From Squalus acanthias (taxonomy: Eukaryota): a DNA stretch of 64,000 nucleotides. Position 1 is the first letter of the stretch; each line of letters starts with the position of its first letter. The stretch spans positions 69,256,001-69,320,000 of the forward strand of contig CM059432.1 of the NCBI GenBank assembly GCA_030390025.1, read 5' to 3'. Shown piece after piece: positions 1 to 38,681 of the stretch. The position numbers and the translations under genes were made by a program. The notes below the pieces were generated by a model, which was given only the letters and a program-made list of their open reading frames with translations, searched no databases and was not told the DNA's origin.

Positions 1-3000
1 GTGTTCTATAATATTCCTTGTGGCAGCATGGCTCTCAATGTATGCCTGCTGTGCACATGTGCATGGGTTCTGGACTGGAGTCGTGAGCCATGTCATGAGT
101 GGATAACCCTTGTCATCCAGTAGCCACCCTTTGATTTGCTATGGTAGTTTAAATACAGCTGGCACAGAGGACTTTAAAAAAAAAAATCATTTATGGGATC
201 AGGGCGTCGCTGGCAATGCCAGCATTTATTGCTCATCCCTAGTTGCCCTTGAGAAGGTGGTGGTGAGCCGCCTTCTTGAACCGCTGCAGTCCGTGTGGTG
301 AAGCTACTCCCACAGTGCTGTTAGGTAGGGAGTTCCAGGATTTTGACCCAGCGACGATGAAGGATCGGCGATATACTTCTAAGTCAGGATGGTGTGTGAC
401 TTGGAGGGAAACTTGGAGGTGGTGGTGTTCCCATGCGCCTGCTGCCCTTGTCCTTCTAGGTGGAAGAGATCGCGGGTTTGGGAGGTGCTGCCGAAGAAGC
501 CTTGGCGAGTTGCTGCAGTGCATCTTGTAGATGGTACACACTGCGGACACGGTACGCCGGTGGTGGAGGGAGTGAATGTTTAAGGTGGTGGATGGGGTGC
601 CAATCAAGCGGGCTGCTTTGTCCTGGATGGTGTCGAGCTTCTTGAGTGTTGTTGGAGCTGCACTCATCCAGGCAAGTGGAGAGTATTCCATCACACTCCT
701 TACTTGTGCCTTGTAGATGGTGAAAAGGCTTTGGGGAGTCAGGAGGTGAGACACTCAGGGCAGAATACCCAGCCTCTGACCTGCTCTTGTTGCCACACTA
801 TTTATGTGGCTGGCCCAGTTAAGTTTCTGGTTAATGGTGACCCCCAGGATGTTGATAGTGGGGGATTCGGCGATGGTAATGCCGTTGAATGTGAAAGGGA
901 GGTGGTTAGACTCTCGCTTGTTGGAGATAGTCATTGCCTGGCACTTCTGTGGCGCGAATGTTACCTGCCACTTATGAGCCCAAGTCTGAACATCGTCCAG
1001 GTCTTGTTGCATGCAGGCATGGACTGCTTCATTATCTGTGGAGTTGCGAATGGCGCTGAACACTGTGCAGTCATCAGCGAACATCCCCATTTCTGACCTT
1101 ATGTTGGAGGGAAGGTCATTGATGAAGCAGCTGAAAATGGTTGGGCCTAGGACACTGCCCTGAGGAACTCCTGCAGCGATGTCCTGGGGCTGTGATGATT
1201 GACTTTCAACCACCACAACCATCTTCCTTTGTGTTAGGTATGACTCCAGCCAGTGGAGCGTTTTCCCCTTGCTTCCCATTGACTTCAGTTTTACTAGGCC
1301 TCCTTGATGCCAGACTCAGTCAAATGCTGCCTTGATGTCAAGGGCAATCACTCTCACCTCACCTCTGGAATTCAGCTCCTTTGTCCATGTTTGGACCAAG
1401 GCTGTAATGAGGTCGGGAGCCAAGTGGTCTTGGCGGAACCCAAACTGGGCATCAGTGAGCATGTTATTGGCGAGTAAGTGCCACTGGATAGCACTGTCGA
1501 TGACACCTTCCATCACTTTGCTGATGATTGAGAGTAGGCTGATGGGGCGGTAATTGGCCGAGTTGGATTTGTCCTGCTTTTTGTGGGCAGGACATACCTG
1601 GGCAGTTTTCCACATTGTCGGATAGATGCCAGTGTTGTAGCTGTACTGAAACAGCTTGGCTAGAGGTGCGGCTAGTTCTGGAGCACAAGTCTTCAGCACG
1701 ATAGCCGGGATGTTGTAGGGGCCCATAGCCTTTGCTGTATCCAGTGCGCTCAGCCGTTTCTTGATATCACGTGGAGTGAATCGAATTGACTGAAAACTGG
1801 CATCTGTGATGGTGGGGACCTCGGGAGGAGGCCGATATGAATCATCCACTCGGCACTTCTGGCTGAAGATGGTTGCAAACGCTTCAGCCTTGTCTTTTGC
1901 ACTCATGTGCTGGGCTCCACCATCATTGAGGATGGGGATATTCTTGGAGCCTCCTCCTCCCGTTAGTTGTTTAATGGTCCACCACCATTCACGACTGGAT
2001 GTGGCAGGACTGCAGAGCTTTGATCTGATCCGTTGATTGTGGGATCGCTTAGCCCTGTCTAAAGCATGCTGCTTCCGCTTTTTAGCATGCATGTAGTCCT
2101 GTGTTGCAGCTTCCCCAGGTTGGCGCCACAGAACAAACGAATCGTGACTACTGCCAGGAAACCAGGCATTGACCTGCATGTGGTCACACACCAGTTGCAC
2201 ATTGGGGGAGTGGAATCCATTTCAGTTCTGGAAAATGGAAGAGTTGATATGAGGCGCATGCAAAGCAACATGCATGCAGTCAGTGGCACCCTGCACCATG
2301 GGAAATCCTGCAATCCATGCAAACCCTCGTTCTCGCTCCACCTGCTTGTCTCTGGCAAAAGGAAATGAGTTAAAGCTGTCTCGCTTTGTAAAGAGAGCCT
2401 CAGTGACCTCCCTTATGCAGCAGTGCTCTGCAAACTGTGAGATGTTGCTCATATCTCCAGCTCCAGCCTGGAAGGAGCCAGACACATAAAAGTTCATGGC
2501 CACGGTCACCTTCACAGCCACAGGCAATGCGGTCATTGCCATGCTCTGAGGTTGGAGTTGTGGCTGCACCAGTTGCCAGATTTCAGTGACGATCTCTTTA
2601 GTGAAGTGAAGATGTCTCAAGCAGTGGTCCTCGCTGAAGTTGAGGTAGGAGAATTGCTCCCTAAAGACCCTCGGCAGATATGGCCTTCTGCTGAGAGCCC
2701 TTCTCCCCCTCCTCTTCCTCCCTCTTCTAGTAGCTTTTGCTGCTCTGCATGGCCTCTCTTCATTCTCCCAGTCATGCTTAATTCCAAGAGGAAGGCTTAC
2801 TGGCCACCCATGTCTGGAAGCAACTGATTTCAACACAAGCCTTTAAGTCACCAAAAATGTACTTCAGCAACAGCCAGACGACTCCCTGTAGACTATTGAA
2901 ACTTTAGACAAGTATGGAAAAGCTCCCAAAATGTGTAGGATTGCAGCAACAGCCAGAAGAAATAATTCAGCAATTAACCTGTATGTCGTTCATGATCCCT

Positions 3001-5822: not shown

Positions 5823-6960
5823 ATGAGTGCTCTAGTTGTCATCCCCCTTGGCCTGCAGCATGACAGGGAGATGGAGCAGAGGCAGCGAAGAAGAGGACAA
5901 GCTGCTCGCAGAGGGAGCAGGAGGAGGGGGCGAAGGGCTCTGAACAGGTGGCCTTACCCACCTAGGGTCTTCCGAGAGCAAATCTGTTACCTCAACCTGA
6001 GCCAGGAGCAGTGTGAGAAGCATCTGCGCTTTACGAAGGAGGTGCTCATAGAACTCTGCCACCTCTTGCAACCAGACCTGCAGCCTCACACCAGGGCAAG
6101 GACAGCACTGCCACTGACTGTGAAGGTGACCGTGGCCCTGAATTTCCTCGTGTCCTTACAGACTGGAGCAGGCGACATCTGTAAAAGCTCCCAGTTCGCC
6201 ATCACTGCTGCATAAGAAATGTGACAGAAGCTCTTTATTACAGGAGAAGGGACTTCATTGTCTTCTCGCTGACCAGGGAGAAGCAGGCAGAGCGTGCACG
6301 TGGCTGTGCCAGGTTAGCAGGCTTCCTCATGGTGCAGGGCGCCATCGATTGCATAAACGTGGCTTTGCAGACACCGTATCTAAATGCTGAGATGTACCGC
6401 AAACGCAAAGGTTACCACTCGCTGAATGTGCAGTTGGTGTGCGACCATGCTCAGCACATCGTGATGGTAAATGCCCGGTATCCTGGCAGCAGTCATGATG
6501 CTTTTATTCTGCGCCCGTCCGGTGTGCCCTCAGTCTTTGAGCGACCACGACAAACCAGAGGGTGGCTACATGGCGACAAAGGCTATCCGCTGACCACCTG
6601 GCTCATGACTCCGCTCCGCAACCCAACCACACGTGGGCAGCACACGTACAGTGAGAGCCATGCTGCTACACGGAATCTGATAGAGCAGACCATTGGCACT
6701 CTTAAACAATACTTCCAGTGCCTGGACCGCTCTGGTGGAGCCCTGCAGTACTCACCAGAACGCGTCTCAAGATTTGTGGTCTGCTCCACAAATTCGCTAT
6801 CATCAGGGCACAGCCCTTGCCACCAGGCATATGGTGACCAGCTGAGAAAGAGGAGGAGGAAGAAGAGAAGGAGGAGGAAGTGGAAGGGAGGAGGCAATCC
6901 AGACAGTACCTTTCTGCCCGGACTGTCCATGATCGACTCAACCGACTGTGGTATGAGTAA
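5823..6960 (+). pseudogene. Harbinger DDE transposase pseudogene (HARBI1-like family)
   Basis: Motifs VQGAIDCINV, RKGYHSLNVQLVCD, ARYPGSSHDAFIL, GDKGYPL and HAATRNLIEQTIG. Frameshifts occur near 6150-6220 and 6780. Confidence 0.9.
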
Positions 6961-7717
6961 ACACAAACGCAATTCCCCATTCAACAATAGTCCCACACTC
7001 CGTACCTTCCCTCTGTTACTGACCATCATAGCGTCCTCTTGGCCACTATGCTGAAATAAAAGCCACCACAAAGCAAACATTCCAATCCAACTTTATCCAT
7101 CAATCCATCCAATACTACATAACAAAGTGAATTAATCACCCTTGTGCATTCCCCTTGTGTCTGTATTGTGTGTGCCTTTGCCTATCCTAGTGCTCCTACA
7201 CAGTGCTACCCCAGTAGCTGCAGCATGTCTGGTGGAAGGCGGCTGACTTTTAGTGGGGGAGATTGCAGATGGCCTTGCAGGATGACCTCGAGCACCTCTT
7301 GGCCTAGAAGGCCTGTCTGTAGACTGCACAGCCTTGGACGGCAGCAGTCTGAGCTGGCTGCCTGACAGGCAACTCCAACGGCACTGGCAGAGTGGCAGTG
7401 GTGGGACGACAAATGCTGTCATCCTGAGAGAGGACAGCAGGTTCGTGCTCCACGGAGCCACTGGTACTCCCCTGGGGCAGCACCTCAGCATTCCTAGCCA
7501 TCTGTTGGAGGACAGATTGCTGGAATGCTGTGAAACCCTGCAAGCCCCTTTCCACACTGGTAAATGCAGCCACAATGGCAGCAGTCTGAGCATGTGTGGC
7601 ATCAAGCTGAGCTTGGATGACTTCTGTCTGAGCTTCCGCTGCAGCACTCAGACGTAGGGTGGTTTGTGCTTGTGCTGCAATGGAAGCTGAGACATCGGCC
7701 ATCAGACACTGCATCAT

Positions 7718-7862
7718 ACAATAGCAAAATACTGCGGATGCTGGAAATCCGAAATAACAACAGAAAACGCTGGAAAAACTCAGCAGGCCAGGCAGCATCC
7801 GTGGAGAGAGAAACAGAGTTAACGTTTCAGGTCAAAGACCTTTCGTCAGAACTGGAAAAAAG
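7718..7862 (-). mobile_element. Solo Penelope pLTR fragment (family 1) inserted in the Harbinger Myb gene
   Basis: Same sequence as 62439-62540. Flanked by CACTGCATCAT / CATTGCATCAT, a probable TSD. Confidence 0.85.
7817..7853 (-). ncRNA. Minimal type I hammerhead ribozyme motif (Penelope family 1)
   Basis: Minus strand reads AGUU-CUGACGA-A-AGGUC(UUU)GACCU-GAAA-CG-UU-AACU: stem I AGUU/AACU, a 5-bp stem II and a palindromic ACGU stem III. Confidence 0.75.
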
Positions 7863-9919
7863 CATTGCATCATGGTTGGGTCCACAAGTGCCCTAATTGA
7901 TCTTCCCACCTCTTCCATGCTGGAAAGGATGGGCTCAAAGCTCTGCGCAAAGCCCTGTGCAAGGTTGGTTCTGGACTCCTCCATGCTCCTTGACATTGCA
8001 TTCAGGTTTTCTGGCAGGCCTGCCAATGCACCAAGCATTTCGTTGTGCATACCCATCAGTGTTCTTCTGTAGACTGCCCCATCGAAGTCCTCATCTGAGT
8101 GCTCTGCAGCAGAACACGTGTGCGACCTCACCCTCTGGGGAGCTGGCACCTGCGCTACCCTTTCCCCCTGCCCTGGCTGTAGCCCACTCATGCCCGGTGA
8201 CTCACCACATGCAGATCCCACCTGTAAGCTACCCTCTAAACTCCACGCAGTGTCAGTATCTGAGCTGGTGGCTACAAGTGTCAGATCGAATGATGGTGTT
8301 TCTTCTTCTTCATCACTCTCCTCTCCTTCTTCTTGTACAACCAGTGGCTGGGCAGGTTGGATTTCTTGGGTATCTGAAATGAGAAAAGCACATGGATAGG
8401 GTTGTGGTGAGGGGAGCGGGGAAAAGCTAGAGGTGCATGCTTACAGCATGTGCAGATTGTAAATCAGAAGAGATTGTGGGATGAGGGGGAAGTGGGATGT
8501 GAGAAGACGGATAACGTATGAGGATACCGGCATCTTGTACTTTTACAGCCCCGCCGATGGCCACAGGCTCAGCCTTGCCCCTCCCAAGAATGGCCAGCAC
8601 CATCTCCTCCAAGTGTGTGAGATGATGCAGGCTAGCCTGCCCCTGCCAGTTAGGTTCTGCTGGCTACGGTTATGCAACACCTTTTCCTGCAAGAGAAAGG
8701 GAAGTATGTCAGTGAGTGTGATGCACTGTATTTGGGTCATGTGCCTGTCAGGGTTGAATAGCTGGCAGTGTGTGCAAGCTGTGAGATGCGAGCGTGAGGC
8801 TTGCAGCAGTGGTAAGTGTATGAGGGTGAGGTGAAGCCATGAATGTGAGGTAGGTGTCGTGTTTGGTAGAGATTTTGTAAGGTGAGTTATGGGGTGTGAT
8901 GCATTGAGCAGTGTGTGAGGCTAGTGGTGTAGATCGTGGGATATGGCATTTGAAGATGAATTCACTGACGTTGCGTCACATCCTCAGGGCAACACTGCTG
9001 GCATTCACCACATTGCTATCTGCTTCCATTGCACTTTTTTCTTGTGCCTGTAGGGCCTCCTGGCCCCCTGTGGAAAGAGGACCTCTCTCCTCGAATTGAC
9101 CTCCGACACTAAGGCCTCCAGTGCTCCATCGGAGAACCTTAGTGCATGCTCTCACCCTTGTTGTGCCATCATTATTTGAGTTTTTGCACTGTCTTCCTCA
9201 GCCACTTGAATGATGATCTGCAGGTAGAATGCACCTCCCCTTTAAGAGGTGCAGATGACCTTTAAGTGGTGCAGGCTAGCTTTAATTGGTTCGCATGCTG
9301 CCTGCAGTCCTCTAAATGGGCATGGGTTGCTAGCTCATCGTGATCCCCATGCCCATTTCCGGGAGCAAACCAATTTCTAGGCCCTGGAATTTCACCATCC
9401 AAGCGTAATGGAACCGAATCCTGGTGGCAGGATCTGGGGTCATAGCTTATTTTCTGGCTGTTCGAGAAGATTCCCACCGAAATGCTGGCAGGAGCATGGC
9501 GGAATGGCAACAGATTTTAATGGCCTCTTACTTTTTAGGACTGTACACTGCTCCTGATGGCATTGAACGTAGGGAGCCTCGTTATCACCAGACTGTATAC
9601 ATGCTCAAGCATGCTCTATTTCACCCAGAACCGTACTGGTTCCCATGCTTTTATGGTTCAGTCTCTCAGGCTAAAGGCTGAAATGATCCATTAACCTTTG
9701 AAATGCCTGGAGTGTATATTAATGACTTAAAGTTTCCTCTGACAGTCCCATTTCCAGTCTGAATGATCCGGGTGGATCTCATTCACATCATTCAAACGAG
9801 GTTTTCCACGTTTAATTAATATGTGAACGGTGTATGCTAGGCACATCTGACATTATAGAACTGGAGCCCGGATAAATGTGGCAAAACCAATGATTGCGCC
9901 GCATATTATTTTCAATAAC

Positions 9920-12838: not shown

Positions 12839-13008
12839 AGTGAAGAGATGCATATAGGCACAGCATATATAGTCAGAGAATGCTGCCAGATGATTACAGT
12901 TCATCTTTCTAACTGCCCTTTATCACACCTCGGCAGAGAGATAATCACGGCAATCAAAGGTGTGGATGGTGTCCTAACAGGTCAGTCAGGAAAACATTAC
13001 ATCAAAGC

Positions 13009-14292
13009 CAATCTCCAGACGCCATCCTACAACTCATCCGCTTCATCCTTGACCACAATGTCTTCACCTTCGACAACCAGTTTTTTACCCAAACACACGG
13101 AACAGCCATGGGGACCAAATTCGCACCCCAATACACCAACATCTTCATGCACAAGTTCGAGCAAGACTTCTTCGCTGCACAGGACCTCCAACCAACGCTA
13201 TACACCAGATACATCAACGACATTTTCTTCCTATGGACCCACGGTGAAGAATCACTGAAGAGACTACACGATAACATCAACAAGTTCCATCCCACTATCA
13301 AACTCACCATGGACTACTCTTCAGAATCGGTTTCATTCTTGGACACACGAATCTCCATCAAAGACGGACACCTCAGCGCTTCACTCTACCGCAAGCCCAC
13401 GGACAACCTCATGATGCTCCACTTCTCCAGCTTCCAGCCTAACCACGTTAAAGAAGCCATCCCCTATGGACAAGCCCTGCGAATACACAGGATCTGCTCA
13501 GATGAGGAGGAACGCGATGGACACCTACAGACGCTGAAAGACGCCCTCGTAAGAACGGGATATGATGCTCGACTCGTCGATCGACAGTTCCAACAGGCCA
13601 CAGCGAAAAATCACATAGACCTCCTCAGAAGACAAACACGGGACACAACCAACAGGGTAACCTACGTCGTCCGGTACTTCCCTGGAGCGGAGAAACTACG
13701 CCATGTACTTCGCAGCCTTCAACATGTCATCGATGACGACGAACACCTTGCTAAGGCCATTCCCATGCCTCCACTACTCGCCTTCAAACAGCTGCCTAAC
13801 CTCAAACAGACCATCGTTCGCAGCAAATTACCCAGATTTCAGGAGAACAGCGACCACGACACCACACAACCCTGCCACGGCAAACTCTGCAAGACATGCC
13901 AGATCATCAACACAGATACCATCATCACATGTGAGGACACCACCCACCAGGTACATGGTACATACTCATGTGACTCGGCCAACGTTGTCTACCTCATACG
14001 TTGCAGGAAAGGATGCCCCGGAGCATGGTACATCGGCGAGACCATGCAGACACTGCGACAACGTATGAACGGGCACTGCGCAACAATCGCCAGGCAGGAG
14101 TGTTCCCTCCCAATCGGGGAACACTTCAGCAGTCAAGGACATTCAGCCTCCGATCTTTGGGTAAGCGTTCTCCAAGGCGGCCTTCGAGACACACGACAAC
14201 GCAAAATCATCGAGCAGAAACTGATAGCCAAGTTCCGCACCCATGAGGACGGCCTCAACTGGGATCTTGGGTTCATGTCACGCTACATGTAA
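13009..14292 (+). CDS. Penelope RT (C-terminal part) + GIY-YIG endonuclease, 5'-truncated but uninterrupted frame
   Basis: Motifs GTAMGTKFAP, RYINDIF (YxDD with D->N), FLDT, LYRKPTD, VVYLIRC..C...YIGET and EQKLI. The frame is open from the inversion junction to TAA. Confidence 0.85.
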   Translation, partial: QSPDAILQLIRFILDHNVFTFDNQFFTQTHGTAMGTKFAPQYTNIFMHKFEQDFFAAQDLQPTLYTRYINDIFFLWTHGEESLKRLHDNINKFHPTIKLTMDYSSESVSFLDTRISIKDGHLSASLYRKPTDNLMMLHFSSFQPNHVKEAIPYGQALRIHRICSDEEERDGHLQTLKDALVRTGYDARLVDRQFQQATAKNHIDLLRRQTRDTTNRVTYVVRYFPGAEKLRHVLRSLQHVIDDDEHLAKAIPMPPLLAFKQLPNLKQTIVRSKLPRFQENSDHDTTQPCHGKLCKTCQIINTDTIITCEDTTHQVHGTYSCDSANVVYLIRCRKGCPGAWYIGETMQTLRQRMNGHCATIARQECSLPIGEHFSSQGHSASDLWVSVLQGGLRDTRQRKIIEQKLIAKFRTHEDGLNWDLGFMSRYM

Positions 14293-15496: not shown

Positions 15497-15568
15497 AATA
15501 GACTTGTTAGCAAACTTGAAGCCCATGGGATGAAAAGGGCAGTGGCTGTGTGAATACCAAATCGGCTA

Positions 15569-16036: not shown

Positions 16037-17312
16037 CAAAAAGCAGAGCGTAGTGGCGAACAGTTGTTTGTCAGACTGGAGGGAAGTATACAGTGGTGTC
16101 CCCCAGGGGTCTGTATTGGGACCACTTTTCTTTTTGATATATATTATTGACCTGGACTTGGGTATACAGGGCTTAATTTCGAAGTTTTCAGATGACACGA
16201 AACTCAAACTTTAGGAGGACATCGACAGACTGGTGAAATGGGCAGACACTTGGCAGATGAAATTTAACGCAGAGAAGTGTGAAGTGATTCATTTCGGTAG
16301 GAAGAATGAGAAGTGGCGATATAAACTAAGTGATACAATTTTAAAGGGGGTGCAGGAACAGAGAGACCTGGGGGTCTATGCACACAAGTCTTTGAAGGTG
16401 GAAGGAGAAGTTGAGAAAGCTGTTAAAAAGGCATACGGGATCCTTGGCTTTATAAATAGAGGCATAGAGTACAAAATCAAGGAAGTTATGCTAAACATTT
16501 ATAAAACATTGCTTAAGCCTCAGCTGGAGTATTGTGGCCAATTCTGACACCACACTTTAGAGAGGGTGCAGAGGAATGGTATCAGGGATGAAAGTCGTCA
16601 GTTACGTGGAGAGAAACTGGGGGTTTTCTTCTTAGAGCAGAGAACATTAAGGGACGATTTTATACAGGTGTTCAAATTCAAGAAAGGGTTTGATAAAGTA
16701 AATAAGGAGACTCAAGGTGGCATCAGGGAAAAATAGAATTAAGTCAAAGCTAAAGGCATTATATCTGAATGCATGAAGCTTTTGCAACAAAATAGATGAA
16801 TTAATAGCACAGATAGAAATTAGTAGGTTTTATCTAATAGCCATTATGGAGATGTGGTTGTAATGTGGCCAAGGTTGGGAACTAAATATTCCAATATGCT
16901 TAACCTTTAGAAGAGAGAGGCAAAATGGAAAAGGAGAGGGGTAGCCCTGATAATAAAGGATTGGATAAAGACAGTAGAGAGAAAGGATCTGAACTCCGAA
17001 AATCAAGAAGTAGAATCAGTTTGGGTGGAGCTAAGAAACAGCAAGGGGCAGAAAACATTGGTGGGAATTGTTAATAGGCCCTCAAACATTAGTTGTAATG
17101 TAGGGCAGAGTATAAATCGGGATTTTTTTTTTTTATTCGTTCATGGGATCTGGGCGTTGCTGGCAAGGCCAGCATTTATTGCCCATCTTTAATTGCCCTT
17201 GAGAACATGGTGGTGAGCCGCCTTCTTGAACCGCTGCAGTTCGTGTGGTGAAGGTACTCCCACAGTGCTGCTAGGGAGGGAGTTCCAGGATTTTGACTCA
17301 GCGACGATGAGG

Positions 17313-17430
17313 AAAGAAAGAAAGAAAGACTTGCATTTATATAGCGCCTTTCATGACCACCGGACGTCTCAAAGCGCTTTACAGCCAATGAAGTACTTTT
17401 TTGAAGTGTAGTCACTGTTGTAATGTTGTA
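17313..17430 (-). mobile_element. 5'-truncated SINE (L2-like tail only) inside LINE copy A
   Basis: (AAAG)n followed by ACTTGCATTTATATAGCGCCTTTCATGACC, matching the SINE tail at 15569. Confidence 0.85.
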
Positions 17431-20316
17431 ATGTTGGAACGGCGATATACTTCCAAGTCAGGATGGTGTGTGACTTGGCGGGGAACTTGGAGGTGGTGGT
17501 GTTCCCATGCGCCTGCTGCCCTTGTCCTTCTAGGTGGAAGAGGTCGTGGGTTTGGGAGGTGCTGCCGAAGGAGCCTTGGCGAATTGCTGCAGTGTATCTT
17601 GTAGATGGTACACACTGCAGCCACGGTACGCCATTGCTGGAGGGAGTGAATGTTTAAGGTGGTGGATGGGGTGCCAATCAAGCGGGCTGCTTTGTCCTGG
17701 ATGGTGTTGAGCTTCTTGAATGTTGTTGGAGCTACACTTATCCAGGCAAGTGGAGAGTATTCCATCACACTCCTGACTTGTGCCTTGTAGATGGTGGAAA
17801 GGCTGATTTGTCCTGGATGGTGTCAAGCTTCTTGAGTGTCCAGTTAAGTTTCTGGTCAATGGTGACCCCCCAGGATGTTGATGGTGGGGGATTCGGTGAT
17901 GGTAATTCTGTTGAATGTCAAGGGGCGGTGGTTAGACTCTCGCTTGTTGGAGATAGTCATTGCCTGGCACTTGTGTGGCACAAATGTTACCTGCCACTTA
18001 TCAGCCCAAGCCTGAATGTCGTCCAGGTCTTGTTGCATGCGGGCATGGACTGTTTCATAATCTGAGGAGTTGCGAATGGCACTGAACACTGTGCAGTCAT
18101 CAGCGAACATCCGCATTTTTGACCTTATGATGGAGGGAAGGTCATTGATGAAGCAGCTGAAGATGTTTGGGTCTAGGATACTGCCCTGAGGAACTACTGC
18201 AGCGATGTCCTGGGGCTGTGGTGATTGACCACCAACCACCTTCCTTTGTGCTAGGTATGACTCCAGCCAGTGGAGAGTTTTCCCCCTGATTCCCATTGAC
18301 TTCAGTTTTACTAGGGCTCCTTGATGCCACACTTGGTCAAATGCCACCTTGGTGTCAAGGGCAGTCACTCTCACCTCAAATCTGGAATTCAGCTCCTTTG
18401 TCCACGTTTGGACCAAGGCTGTAATGAGGTCTGGAGCCGAGTGGTCCTGGCGGAACCCAAACTGGACATCAGTGAGCAGGTTCTTGATAGCACTGTCGAC
18501 GACGCCTTCCATCACTTTGCTGATGATTGAGAGTAGACTGATGGGGCAGTAATTGGCCGGTTGGATTTGTCCTGCTATTTGTGGACAGGACGTAACTGGG
18601 CAGTTTTTCACATTGTCTGATAGATGCCAGTGTTGTAGCTGTACTGGAACAGCTTGGCTAGAGGCGCGGCTAGTTCTGCAGCATGATAGCCGGGATGTTG
18701 TCGGGGCCCATAGCTTTTGCTCTATCCAGTGCACTCAGCCGTTTCTTGATATCATTTGGAGTGAATTGAATTGGCTGAAGACTGGCTTCTGTGATGGTGG
18801 GGACCTCAGGAGGAGGCCGATATGGATCATCCACTCAGCACTTCTGGCTGAAGATGGTTGCAAACGCTTCAGCCTTGTCTTTTGCACTCACGTGCTGGGC
18901 TCCACCATCATTGAGGATGGGGATATTCATGGAGCCTCCTCCTCCCGTTAGTTGTTTAACCACCATTCACGACTGGATGTGGCAGGACCGCAGAGCTTTG
19001 ATCTGATCTGTTGATTGTGGGATCGCTTAGCCCTGTCTATAGCATGCTGCTTCCGCTTTTTAGCATGCATGTAGTCCTGTGTTGCAGCTTCCCCAGGTTG
19101 GCACCTCATTTTTAGGTATGCCTGGTGTTGCTCCTGGCATGCTCTTCTACACTCCTTATTGAACCAGGGTAGGTCGCCTGGCCTGATGGTAATGGTAGAG
19201 TGAGGGATATGCCGGGCCATGAGGTTACAGATTGTGGTGGAATACAATTCTGCTGCTGCTGATGGCCCACAGCGCCTCATGAATGCCCAGTTTTGAGTTG
19301 CTAGATCTGTTCTGAATCTATCCCATTTAGCACGGTGGTAGTGCCACACAACACGATGCAGGGTGTCCTCAGTGTGAAGACGGGACTTCGTCTCCACAAA
19401 GACTGTGCGGTGGTCACTGCTACCAATGCTGTCACAGACAGATGCATCTGCGACAGGTAGATTGGTGAGGATGAGGTCAAGTATGTTTTCCCCTCATGTT
19501 GGTTCTCTCACCACCTGTCGCAGGCCCAGACTGGCAGTTATGTCCTTCAGGACTCGGCCAGCTCAGTCAGTAGTGGTGCTACCGAGCTACTCTTGGTGAT
19601 GGACATTGAAGTCCCCCACCCAGAGTACATTCTGTGCCCTTGCTACTCTCAGTGTTTCTTCCAAGTGGTGTTCAACATGGAGGAGTACTGATTCATCAGC
19701 TGAGGGAGGGCAGTAGGTTGTAATCAGCAGGAGTTTTCCTTGCTTGACCTGAAGCCATGAGACTTCATGGGGTCCGGAGTCAATGTTGAGGACTCCCAAG
19801 GTCACCCCTGGTGGATCTATCCTGCTGGTGGGACATACCCAGGAATGGAGGAGTTTGGGACATTGGCTGAAAGGTATCATTCTGTGAGTATGACTACGTC
19901 AGGCTGTTGCTTGTCTAGTCTGTGGGACAGCTCTTTCAATTTTGGCACAAGTCCCCAGATGTTGATGAGGAGGAGTTTGCAGGGTCGACTGGGCTGGGAG
20001 TGCCATTGTCGTGTCCGTAGCCAGTGCCAAGGTCAATGCCGGGTGGTCCATCCAGTTTTATTCTTATTATTGTGTTTCATAATGGTTTGCTACAACTGAG
20101 TGGCTTGCTCGGCCATTTCAGAGGGCAGTTAAGAGTCAACCACATTGCTGTGGGTCTGGAGTCACATAGAGGCCAGACCAGGTAAGGACGGCAGATTTCC
20201 TTCCCTAAAGAACATTAGTGAACCAGATGGGTTTTTACGACAATCTGATAGTTTCATGGTTAGCATTACTGATACTAGCTTTTTATTCCAGATTTATTAA
20301 TTAACTGGATTTGTTA

Positions 20317-20396
20317 GCTGCGGTGGGATTTGAACTCACGTCTCTGGATCATTAGTCCATGATTACTGGTCCAGTAATATTACCACTATGCCACCC
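20317..20396 (-). promoter_or_regulatory. tRNA-derived Pol III type 2 promoter-like head of LINE copy A
   Basis: A box and B box followed by the CCCACC acceptor-like end. Homologous to 29975-30060. Confidence 0.7.
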
Positions 20397-21035
20397 ATGA
20401 GGTGCATGTAACAAGCGTAATACAGTAAACATGGGGGACTTTATTCTACATATAGACTGGGCAAACCAAATTTGCAGTAATAGTGTGTAGAATTTTATAT
20501 TGAGTTTGAAAGTGATTTAGTTAAATCCGAAACTAAGGTCTTAAATCTAAACAAAGCAAACTACGTATGTATGAGGGGCGAGTTGGCTAAGGTAGATTGG
20601 GAAACTACATCGAAAGGTATGACGGTAGAGAAGCAATGGCTAGCATTTAAAGAATTAATACATAATTTACAGCAAATATACATTCCTTTAAGGCACAAAA
20701 ACCTCACAGGGAAAGTGGTCCAAGCATAGCTAGCAAGAGAAGTTAAAGATAGTATTAGATCAAAGGAAGAGGCTTGTAATGTTGCCAAAAAGAATAGTAA
20801 GCCTGAGGATTGGGAGGATTTTAGAATTCAGCAAAAGAGGATCAAGAAATTGATAAAGAAACAGAAAATAGAATATGAGAGTAAACCAGCTAGAGACATA
20901 AAAACAGACTATAAAAGCTTTTATAGGTATGTAAAAAGGAAAAGATTAGCGAAAGTAAATGTGGGTCCCTTACAGGCTGAGACAGAAGAAATTATAATGG
21001 GGAATAAGATAATGGCAGAGAAATTAAACAAATAC

Positions 21036-28995: not shown

Positions 28996-30272
28996 ACAGC
29001 TCCATATGGATTTGCAGTCTGTGTCACTCTTGGCAATGGTAATTGTCACTGCAAGCACGTTTCTCCTGTTGTTAACTCTGTATTTGTATTTGGATATTTA
29101 GGTACCTTGGGGGTAAGATTTCCCATGATGGCATTATAAATGCACTTTAGAAGATTTCCCCCATTCAGTATTTCTAGCAAAATCATGAACAGATTGGGGT
29201 AGAGTTTCCGATAGCTGACGCTGGTGTTTCCAGTGCAATTCGCCCAAAATTGGGCAAAACAGCGCAAAAGATCAAGGAATTTCTAACGCAAATTATATCC
29301 CGTGCAAATCGATTTTACACAATCTTTTGCGCTTGTTTAAAAAACATAGCACTGGAAGCTGGCCTCACCCATAAACTGGCCTTGCCCCCAGATCGAAATA
29401 ATCACCAAGGCGAGTTCCCACTCATTGTGCCCGTTTGCGGGCCTTCAAGGAGGCTCTTAAAATTAATGGTTTCTTTAGGCGTAAGGGCACTAATAGGCAC
29501 CTTTTAAAAGCTTTTAAATATTTATTTTAATTTACTAAGAAACTGATTACATCTCCAATGAAATAATTTGGAAAGACGTCCAAAATACAGTGAGGTGTTT
29601 TTGATTAGTTCCTGGAAAATAAATAATGTTTTCCTTACAGAATACAGTTAGTTAGATAAATAGATACCACAATTACATAAATAGCTCTCTGCATGTAATA
29701 CGGAGAACATCTAGTTAATGTCTATCTATTCAAGGTATGTGGCTTTTAAATATATATTTTAATAAATATATTAAACCTTAGTTTTTCATAATTGCATCTT
29801 TACAAAAATCTCTACAACAGTACTTAGTTTTTTTAGTAAAACATTTGTACGAAACAGTAAAACAAGTAGTTGTAAGCAAAGGTGCATTGTTGGAGTTGTA
29901 GGCTGCTACTTTGGTGGCCTCTTCAGCTGACAGTGATATCCCTGGTATCTGGAGGCCCAGGCTTCCCACATAGGTACAGGTAGCATAGTGTTTATGTTAC
30001 TGGATGAGCAATCCAAAGGCCTGGACTAATAATCTGGTGACATGAGTTCAAATCCCACTGTGGCTGAATTTAAATTCAGTTAATTAATAAATCTGGAATG
30101 AAAAGCTAGTATCAGTATTGGTGACTGTGAAACTACTGGATTGTCATAAAAACCCACCTGGTTCACTAATGTCTTTTAGAAAAGGAAATCTGTCTTCCTT
30201 ACCTGGTCTGGCCTATATGTGACCGCCTTTTGAAATGGCCTAGCAAGTCACTAAGTTGTACCAAACTGTTAC

Positions 30273-30692
30273 AAAAGAAAGACTTGCATTTATATAGCAC
30301 TTTTCACGACCACCGGACGTCACAAAACGCTTTACAGCCAATGAAGTACTTTTTGAAGTGAAGTAACTGTTGTAATGTAGAAATATTGAAACGCGGCAGC
30401 CAATTTGCAAACAGCAATGAGATAATGACCAGATAATCTTTCTTTTAGTGATTTTGTTTGAGGGATAAATATCAAAAAAGTGCCATAGGGTCTTTTATGT
30501 CCACCAGAGAGAGCAGACAGGGCCTTGGTTTAACATTTCATCTGAAAGACAGGCCCTCCAACAGCACAGCACTCCCTCAGTAATGCACTGGAGTGTCAGA
30601 CTAGATTTTTGTGCTCAAGTTTCTATGGAGTGGGATTTGAACCCACAACCTACACTTGTGACTCAAAGGCAAGAGTGTTTCCAACTGAGCTA
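30273..30692 (-). mobile_element. Deu-domain tRNA SINE inside the LINE copy B 5' region
   Basis: Colinear with the SINE at 15569-16036. Confidence 0.85.
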
Positions 30693-31055
30693 AAGAAGTA
30701 TACAAAGAATAAAACCTGACAGACCACCAGGCATTGACCTAGGCACCGGACACGACAAAAGCACTCCCAGCCCAATCGACCCTGTCCCACAGGCTAGTCA
30801 AGCAACAGCCTGACATAGTCATACTCACAGAATCATACCTTTTAGCCAATGTCCCAGACTCCTCCAGCACCATCCTTAGGTATGTCCTGTCCCACCAACA
30901 GGACAGACCCACCAGAGGTGGTGGCACTGTGGTATACAGTCGGGAGGGAGTGGCCCTGGGAGTCCTCAACATTGACTCCTGACCCCATGCAGTCTCATGG
31001 CATCAGGTCAAACATGGGCAAGGAAACATCCTGCTGATTACCATCTACTGACCCA

Positions 31056-37090: not shown

Positions 37091-37894
37091 TTTTTTTTAA
37101 TTGATTGCATATAAGCAAGTGTGATGCCCAAATTATGATGGACAAAAACACACACAAAGTAGATGTACTGTTTTTATATGTATATAGATAGGCCTAAATT
37201 CTGATATTTTACACTGTTTTGTGCAATAACAATGCATTTTTAAAAAACATTAATCAGTCTGTATTTTTCCACAAGTTGCTTATCAGAAGAGAAACTTGTT
37301 TTAAGTCTACTGCTTTGAGCTGTCTGGGGAATATTGTAATTGTTCACTGGAAAGGTGGCTGCTGCATTTACCCACAGAGAGTATGTTTAGGAGCCACTGA
37401 ACTTGGTTCCTTTCCAAGGTATTGTGCAATTACTTCACAGTGTCTGATTTACTTTAAAGCTTCTTGTTATTGCAGTTTAAAGCTTCAATTTATCCCACAT
37501 ACATCCTGTTTAAAACTGCTTTTCTTCCCTGTTGAACAATGACAATGTATAACATATCATGGTTTTTACAGATGGAAGTTGCATCTTGAATACAGACTGA
37601 TTTTGATGCAGTGAGAATCTGCAAAACACATGCTCCTCTGGTTTGAGTTAAGCAAAAGTCTATGATCAAGACATTAAGCAGTCACTCTGGCTAAAGAAGA
37701 ACAACAACTCGCATTTATATTACATAGAATTACATTGAATTTACAGAAACAGGCCATTCAATCCAACTGGTCCATGCTGGTGTTTATGCTCTACATGAGC
37801 CTCCTACTCACTTTACTTCATCTTACCCTATCCTTCTATTCCTTTCTCCGTTATATACCTATCTAGCTTCCCCCAAATGCTTCTATGCTACACA

Positions 37895-38681
37895 AGGGCA
37901 AGGGCAGACGTCGATGACGAAGTCCAACACCACCTTCAGTGTGCCAGCGCAGCCTTCGGTCACCTGAGGAAGAGAGTGTTTGAAGACCAGGACCTCAAAC
38001 CCAGCACTAAGCTCATGGTCTACAGAGCAGTAGTGATACCCGCCCTCCTGTATGCTTCAGAGACATGGACCATGTACAGCAGGCACCTCAAAGCACTGGA
38101 GAGGTACCACCAACGCTGCCTCCGCAAGATCCTGCAAATCCATTGGCAGGATAGGCGCACCAACGTCAGTGTACTCGCTCAGGCCAACATCCCCAGCATC
38201 GAAGCTTTGACCATGCTCGATCAGCTCCGATGGATGGGCCACATCGTCCGCATGCCCGATACGAGACTCCCAAAACAAGCGCTCTACTCGGAGCTCCGAC
38301 ACGGCAAGAGAGCCCCAGGTGGGCAGAGGAAACGCTTCAAGGACACCCTCAAAGCCTCCTTGAAAAAGTGCAACATTCCCACCGACACCTGGGAATCCCT
38401 GGCCCAAGACCGCACAAAGTGGAGGAGAAGCATCCAGGAAGGCGCCAAACACCTCGAGTCTCTTCGTCTGGAGCAAGCAGAAGCCAAGTGCAAACAGCGG
38501 AAGGAGCGCTAGTCAACCCAAGCACCCCACTCACCCGCCCCTTCAACCACCGTCTGCCCCACCTGTGACAGAGAATGTAGGTCCCGCATTGGACTCATCA
38601 GTCACCTGAGAACTCATTTTTAGTGTGGAAGCAAGTCATCCTCGGTTCCAAGGGATTGCCTAAGAAGAGAAGAAGAAGAAG
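37895..38681 (+). mobile_element. RTE-clade (BovB-like) LINE 3' fragment with 10-bp TSD, inserted in a CR1 tail
   Basis: Motifs AFGHLRKRVF, VYRAVVIPALLYASETWT, QLRWMGHIVRM and GGQRKRFKDTLK, with an (AAG)n tail. ATGCTACACA occurs at 37885-94 and 38682-91. Confidence 0.92.

Follow-up and report, generated by a model that had tools for sequence, protein, structure and literature searches.

The 64-kb window of spiny dogfish (Squalus acanthias) DNA analysed here carries a decayed copy of what appears to be an autonomous Zenon LINE of sharks and rays, headed by a tRNA-derived sequence of the kind that opens SINEs. This head has the makings of a type 2 Pol III promoter, and transcription of the coding element by Pol III is plausible; we put the probability of this reading at roughly 0.6. 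The family is known as SquAca_Zenon-1 (PMC13343379), and the tRNA head with its A and B boxes goes unmentioned in the main text of that paper, where tRNA, polymerase III and promoter have 0 occurrences. We found no text on the Zenon head, although Repbase, Dfam, SINEBase, Zenodo or the bioRxiv supplements may name it or its short derivative. The features of the window copy are:

17123..20395, minus strand: decayed near-full-length elasmobranch Zenon (CR1-group) LINE, from identity to the family majority and best copies
20315..20395, minus strand: tRNA-derived head (Rfam RF00005), most like tRNA-Gln of three types compared
20393-20383, minus strand: A box TGGCATAGTGG, fitting the motif TRGYNNARYGG
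20337-20326, minus strand: B box GAGTTCAAATCC, fitting the motif GWTCRANNC
20090..20314, minus strand: remaining 5' UTR with several upstream AUGs, 88% in common with an older SINE-like family of ~430 nt
20090..20116, minus strand: in-frame AUG, then one or two stops, immediately before the long frame
17189..20089, minus strand: one long frame (family majority: 973 codons, first Met at codon 287), broken here
19400..19960, minus strand: apurinic-type endonuclease domain, approximate bounds (PF03372 and PF14529 above cut-off)
17868..18557, minus strand: reverse transcriptase domain (PF00078, E 2.6e-30)
17311..17435, minus strand: secondary insertion, a 125-nt 3' piece of a different repeat ending in (CTTT)n, absent from the majority
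17123..17188, minus strand: short 3' UTR, with AATAAA at 17180-17175 and a second AATAAA merging into a 12-A tail

An autonomous Zenon LINE

Aligned in three blocks, the window copy has 91-96% identity to the family majority; its identity to the best-scoring other copies is 87-93% in the main alignment blocks. The majority is 3,314 nt long and the published SquAca_Zenon-1 about 3,315 (PMC13343379). By eye, the first ~186 nt of the majority columns are the SquAca_Zenon-1 consensus, and the next ~210 nt of that consensus agree with genomic copies. The window family therefore appears to match SquAca_Zenon-1, with no sequence difference over the first 400 nt compared by eye. The initial annotation left it open whether the family was already described; it was, as an elasmobranch Zenon LINE, placed in the Zenon clade by PMC13343379 (2026). 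Lepidopteran proteins are among its protein matches. The closest protein relatives are P0026 and P0027 (37-41%), and a search of viral contigs gave no relatives. The family makes up ~3.8% of a random genome sample, a rough figure since the sample is only 200 kb.

The element was initially described as a full-length APE-RT LINE. Near-full length and the endonuclease-RT content stand, but the copy is not intact: stops and frameshifts interrupt it, and it has lost 3-32 nt at each of 11 deletions, with one further gap of ~83 nt. The span first assigned to the LINE likewise holds except for the 125 nt of 17311-17435. The repeat inserted there, which we take to be an L2-type SINE tail, recurs in the window at 15568, 30274 and 45009.

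The case for autonomy, also claimed at the outset, is strengthened by the coding frame. The 973-codon frame is open in the family majority and holds endonuclease and RT in a single frame without an ORF1 (the endonuclease domain was found on copy L019 and its coordinates transferred to the window copy). SquAca_Zenon-1 is likewise an endonuclease-RT frame without ORF1, ending in the poly(A) tail common to all Zenons (PMC13343379). Among variants common to several copies, 24 are nonsynonymous and 23 synonymous, whereas private variants divide into 1,260 and 437 (P=0.001), and the frame is under purifying selection. Copies are 5'-truncated, 3'-biased and A-tailed, the pattern expected of target-primed reverse transcription; candidate target-site duplications amount to short or incomplete matches flanking some copies, with none clear at the window copy.

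The tRNA-derived head

Both boxes noted initially at the start of the LINE are present, and the head that contains them is tRNA-derived. The window copy is 48/70 identical to a genomic tRNA-Gln in a gapped alignment (z 6.9), against z 2.4-2.7 for tRNA-Lys and tRNA-Cys, so that 'Gln-like' means the best of these three; a one-arm derivative is 44/64 identical to tRNA-Gln, also gapped. An origin from tRNA-Thr, based on the AGT loop, would be a guess. With Rfam RF00005 the head reaches 21.6 bits (E 0.06), short of the gathering score of 29, and ARAGORN called no tRNA gene in the 64-kb window. The head has one of the traits that define the SINE2 class, A and B boxes combined with a tRNA likeness that extends over 60 nt with an identity of 60% or more. 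The family head has two anticodon-arm-like hairpins, a region from which the window copy has lost 7 nt. The acceptor stem is unpaired in the Rfam alignments, whilst the box nucleotides are retained.

This head is the family's fixed and sole full-length 5' end. Across 44 head-bearing rows, column agreement is 20-50% in the flank, 70-80% at GGAAC and 80-90% or more beyond. When copies were picked with a distant protein, 9 of 20 extended to the head and 11 ended at scattered points with unrelated flanks; a second common 5' end was sought among these 20 and not found.

The head is not confined to the dogfish. All seven elasmobranch Zenon consensuses, from five species of sharks and ray, start with it (PMC13343379 Table S2; by eye), and each species retains the A and B boxes, with differing sequence in the spacer that separates them. 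Three species have the canonical B box GGTTCGAATCC and the ray B box is one base short (Table S2); in the first 400 letters of each supplement sequence, GGTTCGAATCC occurs only three times (PMC13343379). Within the first 400 nt, Zenons of hagfish (2 rows) and of coelacanth (1 row, in letters mostly of low confidence) show no head, and T4 occurs several times. An Rfam scan of 15 of 80 metagenome loci with related frames gave no tRNA match, though these contigs may miss 5' ends and among the controls L036 was missed and L048 reached only E 4.5. The idea that the 5' UTR holds the 66-nt Meta domain found behind the head of MetaSINEs was rejected, since by eye it bears no likeness to the published Meta consensus.

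Scarcity of T runs in the sense strand

A lack of terminators is the second feature to be weighed. The sense (minus) strand has zero runs of four or more T over 3,645 nt (17052-20696), the longest such gap on the minus strand of the window (the next is 1,461 nt); the initial observation of no sense TTTT in about 3.2 kb is thus borne out, whilst the roughly 15 sense AAAA counted then become 18 A4+ runs, including the tail and one within the inserted SINE piece. The bias runs through the family: 29 other copies (87,950 nt) have 18 T4 against 416 A4 runs, and the 20 copies picked with a distant protein (60,999 nt) have 9 against 266. A master free of T4 would, in a simulation of neutral decay, acquire 0.13 T4/kb, compared with 0.20 and 0.15 in these two sets, tail runs included.

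Taken alone, absence of TTTT is a weaker argument than was first claimed, because own-codon shuffles give zero T4 in 12% of trials (P=0.12) and because a headless RTE LINE in the same genome has a single T run in 3.4 kb, at the stop codon, leaving about 3.3 kb T4-free through composition alone. The 5' end of this RTE was defined by 2 of 5 extended copies reaching a GC-rich tandem array, and neither the box motif nor an Rfam tRNA was found there. Equally T4-free headless relatives had been named in advance as evidence against Pol III, and the RTE goes part of the way there.

Selection against T4 is thus not upheld by the zero count; TTT, terminator-like 5-mers and phenylalanine support it modestly. 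TTT occurs 5 times against 11.2 expected from own-codon shuffles (P about 0.006), and terminator-like 5-mers once against 7.4 (P=0.006, in a test picked after inspection of the data). Runs of A, C and G are not depleted, and TTT is close to expectation in CR1 (32 versus 28.8) and in the headless RTE (12 versus 11.0). Among related metagenome ORFs (80 loci, of which 29 without an open frame of 600 codons were excluded), 51/51 have at least two T4 runs and at least 14 terminator-like 5-mers each; on a z scale, one of the 51 is as extreme as Zenon for the 5-mers and two for TTT. Phenylalanine, at 1.9%, is lower in the Zenon protein than in all 116 related proteins, although z is only -2.3, and 13 of 16 conserved Phe columns are retained. 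Variants that create TTT are 0/47 of the shared and 54/1,697 of the private ones, too few to demonstrate selection.

No T-run terminator lies in the 3' UTR of the window copy, and across the family a single T precedes the tail in 27/36 rows and at least four T in 5/36. Of the two marks of a T+ SINE, Zenon has the AATAAA and lacks the built-in terminator.

Transcription of the element and its relation to SINEs

The Pol III reading is favoured by the absence of any full-length 5' end other than the head, by boxes kept while the cloverleaf was lost, by the scarcity of T runs and by the short derivatives. TFIIIC would bind the A and B boxes and Pol III would initiate at the first G. Since the sense strand is without T4 or TVTTT, the polymerase could run the full 3.3 kb, terminating where the flank first offers a T run, or at one grown before the tail. 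The uncapped RNA would need unusual translation, by a non-AUG start, re-initiation past the short upstream frame or readthrough of a stop (CAA or CUA next): the AUG-led upstream frame has a stop at its ninth codon in 53/59 copies, and 3/59 have neither stop. Folding of the 5' UTR is scarcely stronger than that of shuffled sequence (z -1.7), so an IRES-like structure is not supported. Priming by the Zenon protein on the A tail would mean that every complete copy takes its promoter along. The head was probably captured before the split of sharks and rays, through template switching that joined a headless Zenon to a tRNA-SINE itself made from the ends of Zenon. The fullest version of this scheme, to which we would give even odds, is a Pol III LINE since that split, its coding sequence shaped against terminators at some cost in phenylalanine, its RT made without an AUG from an uncapped 3.3-kb RNA, and LINE and SINE forming one transcription unit of two lengths.

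Transcription by Pol II from a captured SINE 5' end, with the boxes a relic or a site where TFIIIC opens chromatin for a Pol II start, is rather unlikely. It would explain the scarcity of T by a T-poor, C-rich coding strand or by avoidance of polypyrimidine splice or termination signals, and it draws strength from the equally T4-poor RTE, from a sense strand of 19.6% T, for which 21% of first-order Markov trials contain no T4, and from a 3' end with AATAAA and poly(A) but no fixed terminator. It accounts less well for the persistence of both boxes in five species although the spacer changed, or for a depletion of TTT and near-terminators that exceeds codon usage in Zenon and not in RTE or CR1, and leaves other runs untouched. 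A cap would ease part of the translation problem, but capped RNA would still meet several upstream AUGs and in-frame stops.

The head might instead act as RNA, with no promoter role, either as a ribosome recruiter or as a tRNA-like fold that, like the ribozymes of R2 or L1Tc, defines where read-through RNAs from the host begin. The frame without a usable start AUG would suit such a role, as would the two hairpins between the boxes, whose arms have changed in other shark consensuses yet are still complementary (by eye). This is improbable, given box nucleotides retained over an unpaired acceptor stem, a head that matched no ribozyme or IRES family, and the unremarkable folding score. More improbable still, and largely refuted, is the idea that SINE and LINE were fused by chance, or that the element is a long passenger, itself non-autonomous, of a separate headless LINE. 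Template switches between SINEs and LINEs are common (PMC4824008), and a rare headless family could escape searches that scored the best 40-60 candidates. Against this stand the single fixed junction in all long copies, a frame under purifying selection and an identical architecture in five species; moreover, of the 60 matches to an outside protein only 35% identical, the 20 examined all belong to the Zenon family.

Transcription of Zenon by Pol III, if true, would matter for classification. LINEs are by working definition coding and transcribed by Pol II, and SINEs non-coding and transcribed by Pol III, whose processivity is held to limit element length, a point that counts against our reading (PMC3531059, PMC10886601). 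A Pol III retrotransposon that is coding and 3.3 kb long would stand outside this split. It would also provide a natural example of protein made from RNA that Pol III leaves uncapped, and simple internal deletion would lead directly from the LINE to a SINE. If Pol II is used instead, sharks and rays still have a LINE with a fixed SINE head, on which PMC13343379 makes no remark.

Partial parallels are known. Some Ingi or Vingi elements reportedly have 5' ends derived from RNA genes, and human L1 was long ago said to use Pol III. B2, Dip and Ves, which are T+ SINEs (PMC8466645), share with Zenon a Pol III-type head, a near-terminal AATAAA and an A tail, but are mammalian, short and non-coding, with a built-in minimal terminator that most Zenon copies lack; their T runs lengthen before short tails, to be compared with the few Zenon rows having at least four T. 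Cassandra, Helenus and Ajax (TRIMp3; PMC10886601) are also non-SINE retrotransposons with a Pol III promoter derived from a small RNA, but are of LTR type, non-autonomous and 311-1,263 nt long. The butterfly, hagfish and coelacanth Zenons resemble the shark element in their single ORF, poly(A) and length of about 3.3 kb. The butterfly Zenon-derived SIDE Persaeus (PMC6740152) consists, as in the shark case, of short internally deleted derivatives of both ends, but is stated to be without tRNA homology and without a Pol III promoter.

The older SINE-like family of ~430 nt opens with the first ~340 nt of the Zenon LINE and has head and tail in common with it. The derivative is under 700 nt and non-coding, as SINE2 elements are, and the 3.3-kb coding LINE is neither. 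The derivative resembles the tRNA-SINEs derived from bipartite LINEs (RTE, Vingi; PMC5786205), which likewise join a tRNA head to 5' and 3' parts of a LINE. In those systems the head is on the short non-coding form only, the partner LINE being taken as Pol II-transcribed, whereas in the shark element, of the Zenon clade, the full coding LINE bears it.

Head and family of the Zenon LINE

The LINE copy studied here lies on the minus strand of the window and carries a later insertion of another repeat:

20395 to 17123, minus strand: copy of the Zenon LINE
17311-17435: later insertion of another repeat in the LINE copy

The copy is decayed. Both boxes of the initial annotation, A and B, are found where it placed them, and the sense strand indeed holds no T4 run (TTTT) across window 17052-20696, the longest sense-T4-free gap on the window's minus strand, as against 18 sense runs of four or more A in the copy. 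A 39-nt direct repeat (17685-17723 and 17801-17839), at which ~83 nt of family sequence is missing, looks like a local rearrangement.

The initial annotation left open whether the family had been described; it is catalogued as SquAca_Zenon-1, a sequence equal in length to our family majority and identical to it by eye over the first ~186 nt (PMC13343379). The same paper describes Zenon LINEs of five elasmobranch species, coelacanth and hagfish, with a poly(A) tail and no ORF1. ‘tRNA’, ‘polymerase III’ and ‘promoter’ have no matches in its main text, and a limited search of the open-access literature found no account of an autonomous LINE that bears a tRNA head or is transcribed by Pol III. Within the 400 nt visible of each row of PMC13343379, the head opens all seven elasmobranch Zenon rows and no T4 is seen by eye; in contrast, the hagfish and coelacanth rows have no head and several T4 runs. 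The canonical GGTTCGAATCC is present in the rows of three species, and within the searchable supplement this 10-mer is confined to them; the ray B box is one base short of canonical, and the spacer between the boxes varies among elasmobranch species (PMC13343379). There may have been horizontal transfer among elasmobranchs, which, if true, would mean that the boxes have been retained for a shorter time. What the initial annotation noticed is genuine and belongs to a family already known.

The tRNA-like head is the 5' end of this family. Agreement begins abruptly at GGGAAC across 44 head-bearing rows, although these were chosen by head likeness. An unbiased set of 20 copies was obtained by searching with a metagenome protein of 35% identity: nine reach the head, the other 11 end at positions 73-448 and have flanks that are unrelated, and no second shared 5' start is found. 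Genomic tRNA-Gln is the closest to the head among the Gln, Lys and Cys genes compared; the head carries a second anticodon-like arm and its acceptor stem is unpaired. An exact A box is present in 25 of the 37 heads scored, an exact B box in 30 and both in 18. In 200 kb of random genome (both strands), only three A boxes have a B box 25-65 nt behind them, one of these pairs lying in the Zenon family and two in a different tRNA-like repeat. Matches to the tRNA-Gln pattern number 275 genome-wide and include a long tandem array (G000:C21:3337426-3413453 and onward) of alternating CTG and TTG anticodons at ~600-nt spacing; on several contigs tRNA matches recur every ~1.8 kb, and five of six such loci checked are tRNA-Lys.

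The coding frame and its translation

Searching the genome turned up 34,905 first-look candidates for the family. In a random sample of 200,000 bases the family accounts for 7,585 (3.8%), and its coverage depth in that sample climbs toward the 3' end. The majority of 30 long copies (3,309 columns, mean divergence 3.7%) has a single open frame of 973 codons, whose endonuclease and RT domains exceed Pfam cut-offs and whose close protein matches are from other sharks and rays. With CpG changes excluded, variants shared by at least 12% of 80 copies comprise 24 nonsynonymous and 23 synonymous changes and no stops, and private variants 1,260 nonsynonymous (86 stops) and 437 synonymous (Fisher P=0.001 for nonsynonymous/synonymous counts). 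Because shared variants are less often nonsynonymous than private ones, the source elements have been selected for their protein. Pieces of the frame inside annotated shark proteins (P0002, P0014, P0019 and P0021: aldo-keto reductase, anoctamin-7, LRRC32 and GPR139) are probably gene-model errors. Short deletions are numerous in old copies, as at L249:7216-7963 (24% gaps in the alignment) and many other loci, which suggests deletion-rich decay in the S. acanthias genome.

The frame lacks an AUG to start from: an AUG in frame with it meets a stop at codon 3 in 40/59 copies and at codon 9 in 53/59. Stops followed by CAA or CUA are leaky. By eye in PMC13343379, AUG-GCC-UAG-CAA opens the region before the frame in the main consensuses of all five species; in three of the other four it shares its frame with an Arg-rich leader downstream, and the second stop is unique to the S. 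acanthias family among the five. A late first methionine is also common in metagenome relatives, so an AUG-less frame does not set a Pol III element apart.

Transcription of the LINE

We favour, at a probability of about 0.6 and from sequence features, a route in which a putative internal Pol III promoter in the head would drive transcription of a terminator-free 3.3-kb RNA, which would be translated unconventionally and copied via target-primed reverse transcription. The main rival, possible though rather unlikely, is Pol II transcription of a coding strand that is T-poor, with the head as a relic or TFIIIC-binding. That the head acts at the RNA level seems improbable, and a chance chimera or passenger more improbable still.

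Minimal Pol III terminators are T4 and TVTTT (PMC8466645). The family majority has seven TTT, no T4, no TVTTT and one TTVTT. The significance of the T4 absence hinges on the null chosen, since P spans 0.002 (uniform codons), 0.02 (third-position weighting) and 0.12 (the element's own codons), to 0.21 and 0.60 (order 1 and order 2 Markov). The most damaging control for the T-run argument is the RTE LINE of the same genome, which lacks a tRNA head, is 17% T and over 3,429 columns has just one T5, located at its stop codon. Thus, the T4 absence proposed as a mark of selection stands as a count, but it is not significant against own-codon shuffles, has a parallel over about 3.3 kb in a headless LINE and is not diagnostic by itself. 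The CR1 control has 9 T4 in its 2.6 kb, matching its shuffles.

Finer measures tell the families apart. Against own-codon shuffles, Zenon has 5 TTT runs for 11.2 expected and 1 terminator-like 5-mer for 7.4 expected (P about 0.006 each), whereas RTE and CR1 are at expectation for both, and A, C and G runs in Zenon are normal. Of 80 metagenome relatives, 51 were usable (mostly <36% identical), and every one of these has at least two T4 and at least 14 terminator-like 5-mers; z scores as extreme as Zenon's occur in 1/51 for 5-mers and 2/51 for TTT. Phenylalanine in the Zenon protein is below all 116 related proteins (z -2.3). These measures, partly post hoc, are suggestive support for the Pol III reading.

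Short derivatives and neighbouring repeats

An older ~430-nt family joins the LINE's first ~340 nt to its last ~130 nt or less. Its copies are 74-88% alike to the query copy. Compared with LINE copy L019, its majority shows 88% identity over 286 nt and 91% over 78 nt. The LINE frame's first and last codons are kept; one junction recurs, and there are many additional deletions. Among 13 extra matches, BLAST places both head and tail inside 1 kb for nine and finds the head alone for three, which have short tail remnants by eye; one runs on into the LINE frame. Contigs of four other organisms span the whole LINE, with many joints from ~300-340 to the 3' end and a summed depth that is greater over the head than immediately after it. 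Derivation by deletion from the headed LINE fits, as does transfer of the head to the LINE from a SINE that arose on a bipartite LINE, for which a model exists (PMC5786205). T runs of 4-10 stand right before the short A tail in 5/36 rows (L002, L010, L019, L027 and L029), similar to T+ SINEs, in which ageing copies lengthen the terminator; simple slippage would also explain them.

The RTE family is present at window 37799-38512 (+) and at loci L091-L115 and L241-L245; its 5' end is a GC-rich 19-nt tandem array, its codon bias is strongly C-ending, and 24/25 copies carry the single T5 in a sense strand of 17% T. A SINE with a tRNA head and a (CTTT)n end, whose tail we take to be L2-type, occurs at window 30274-30642 (-), 17311-17435 (-) and 53399 (+); one full SINE lies inside a plus-strand Zenon copy (29979-31053), and the studied copy contains a 3' piece. 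A DDE_Tnp_4 transposase, presumably Harbinger-like, lies at 6185-7054 (+), and on the strand opposite to it 7132-8440 holds long frames that carry no annotation; another fragment that looks similar, at 2222-2842 (-), has no Pfam match. A 459-codon frame at 12913-14292 (+), with a weak RT match below cut-off and a C-terminal GIY-YIG-like stretch by eye, is probably a Penelope-like element.
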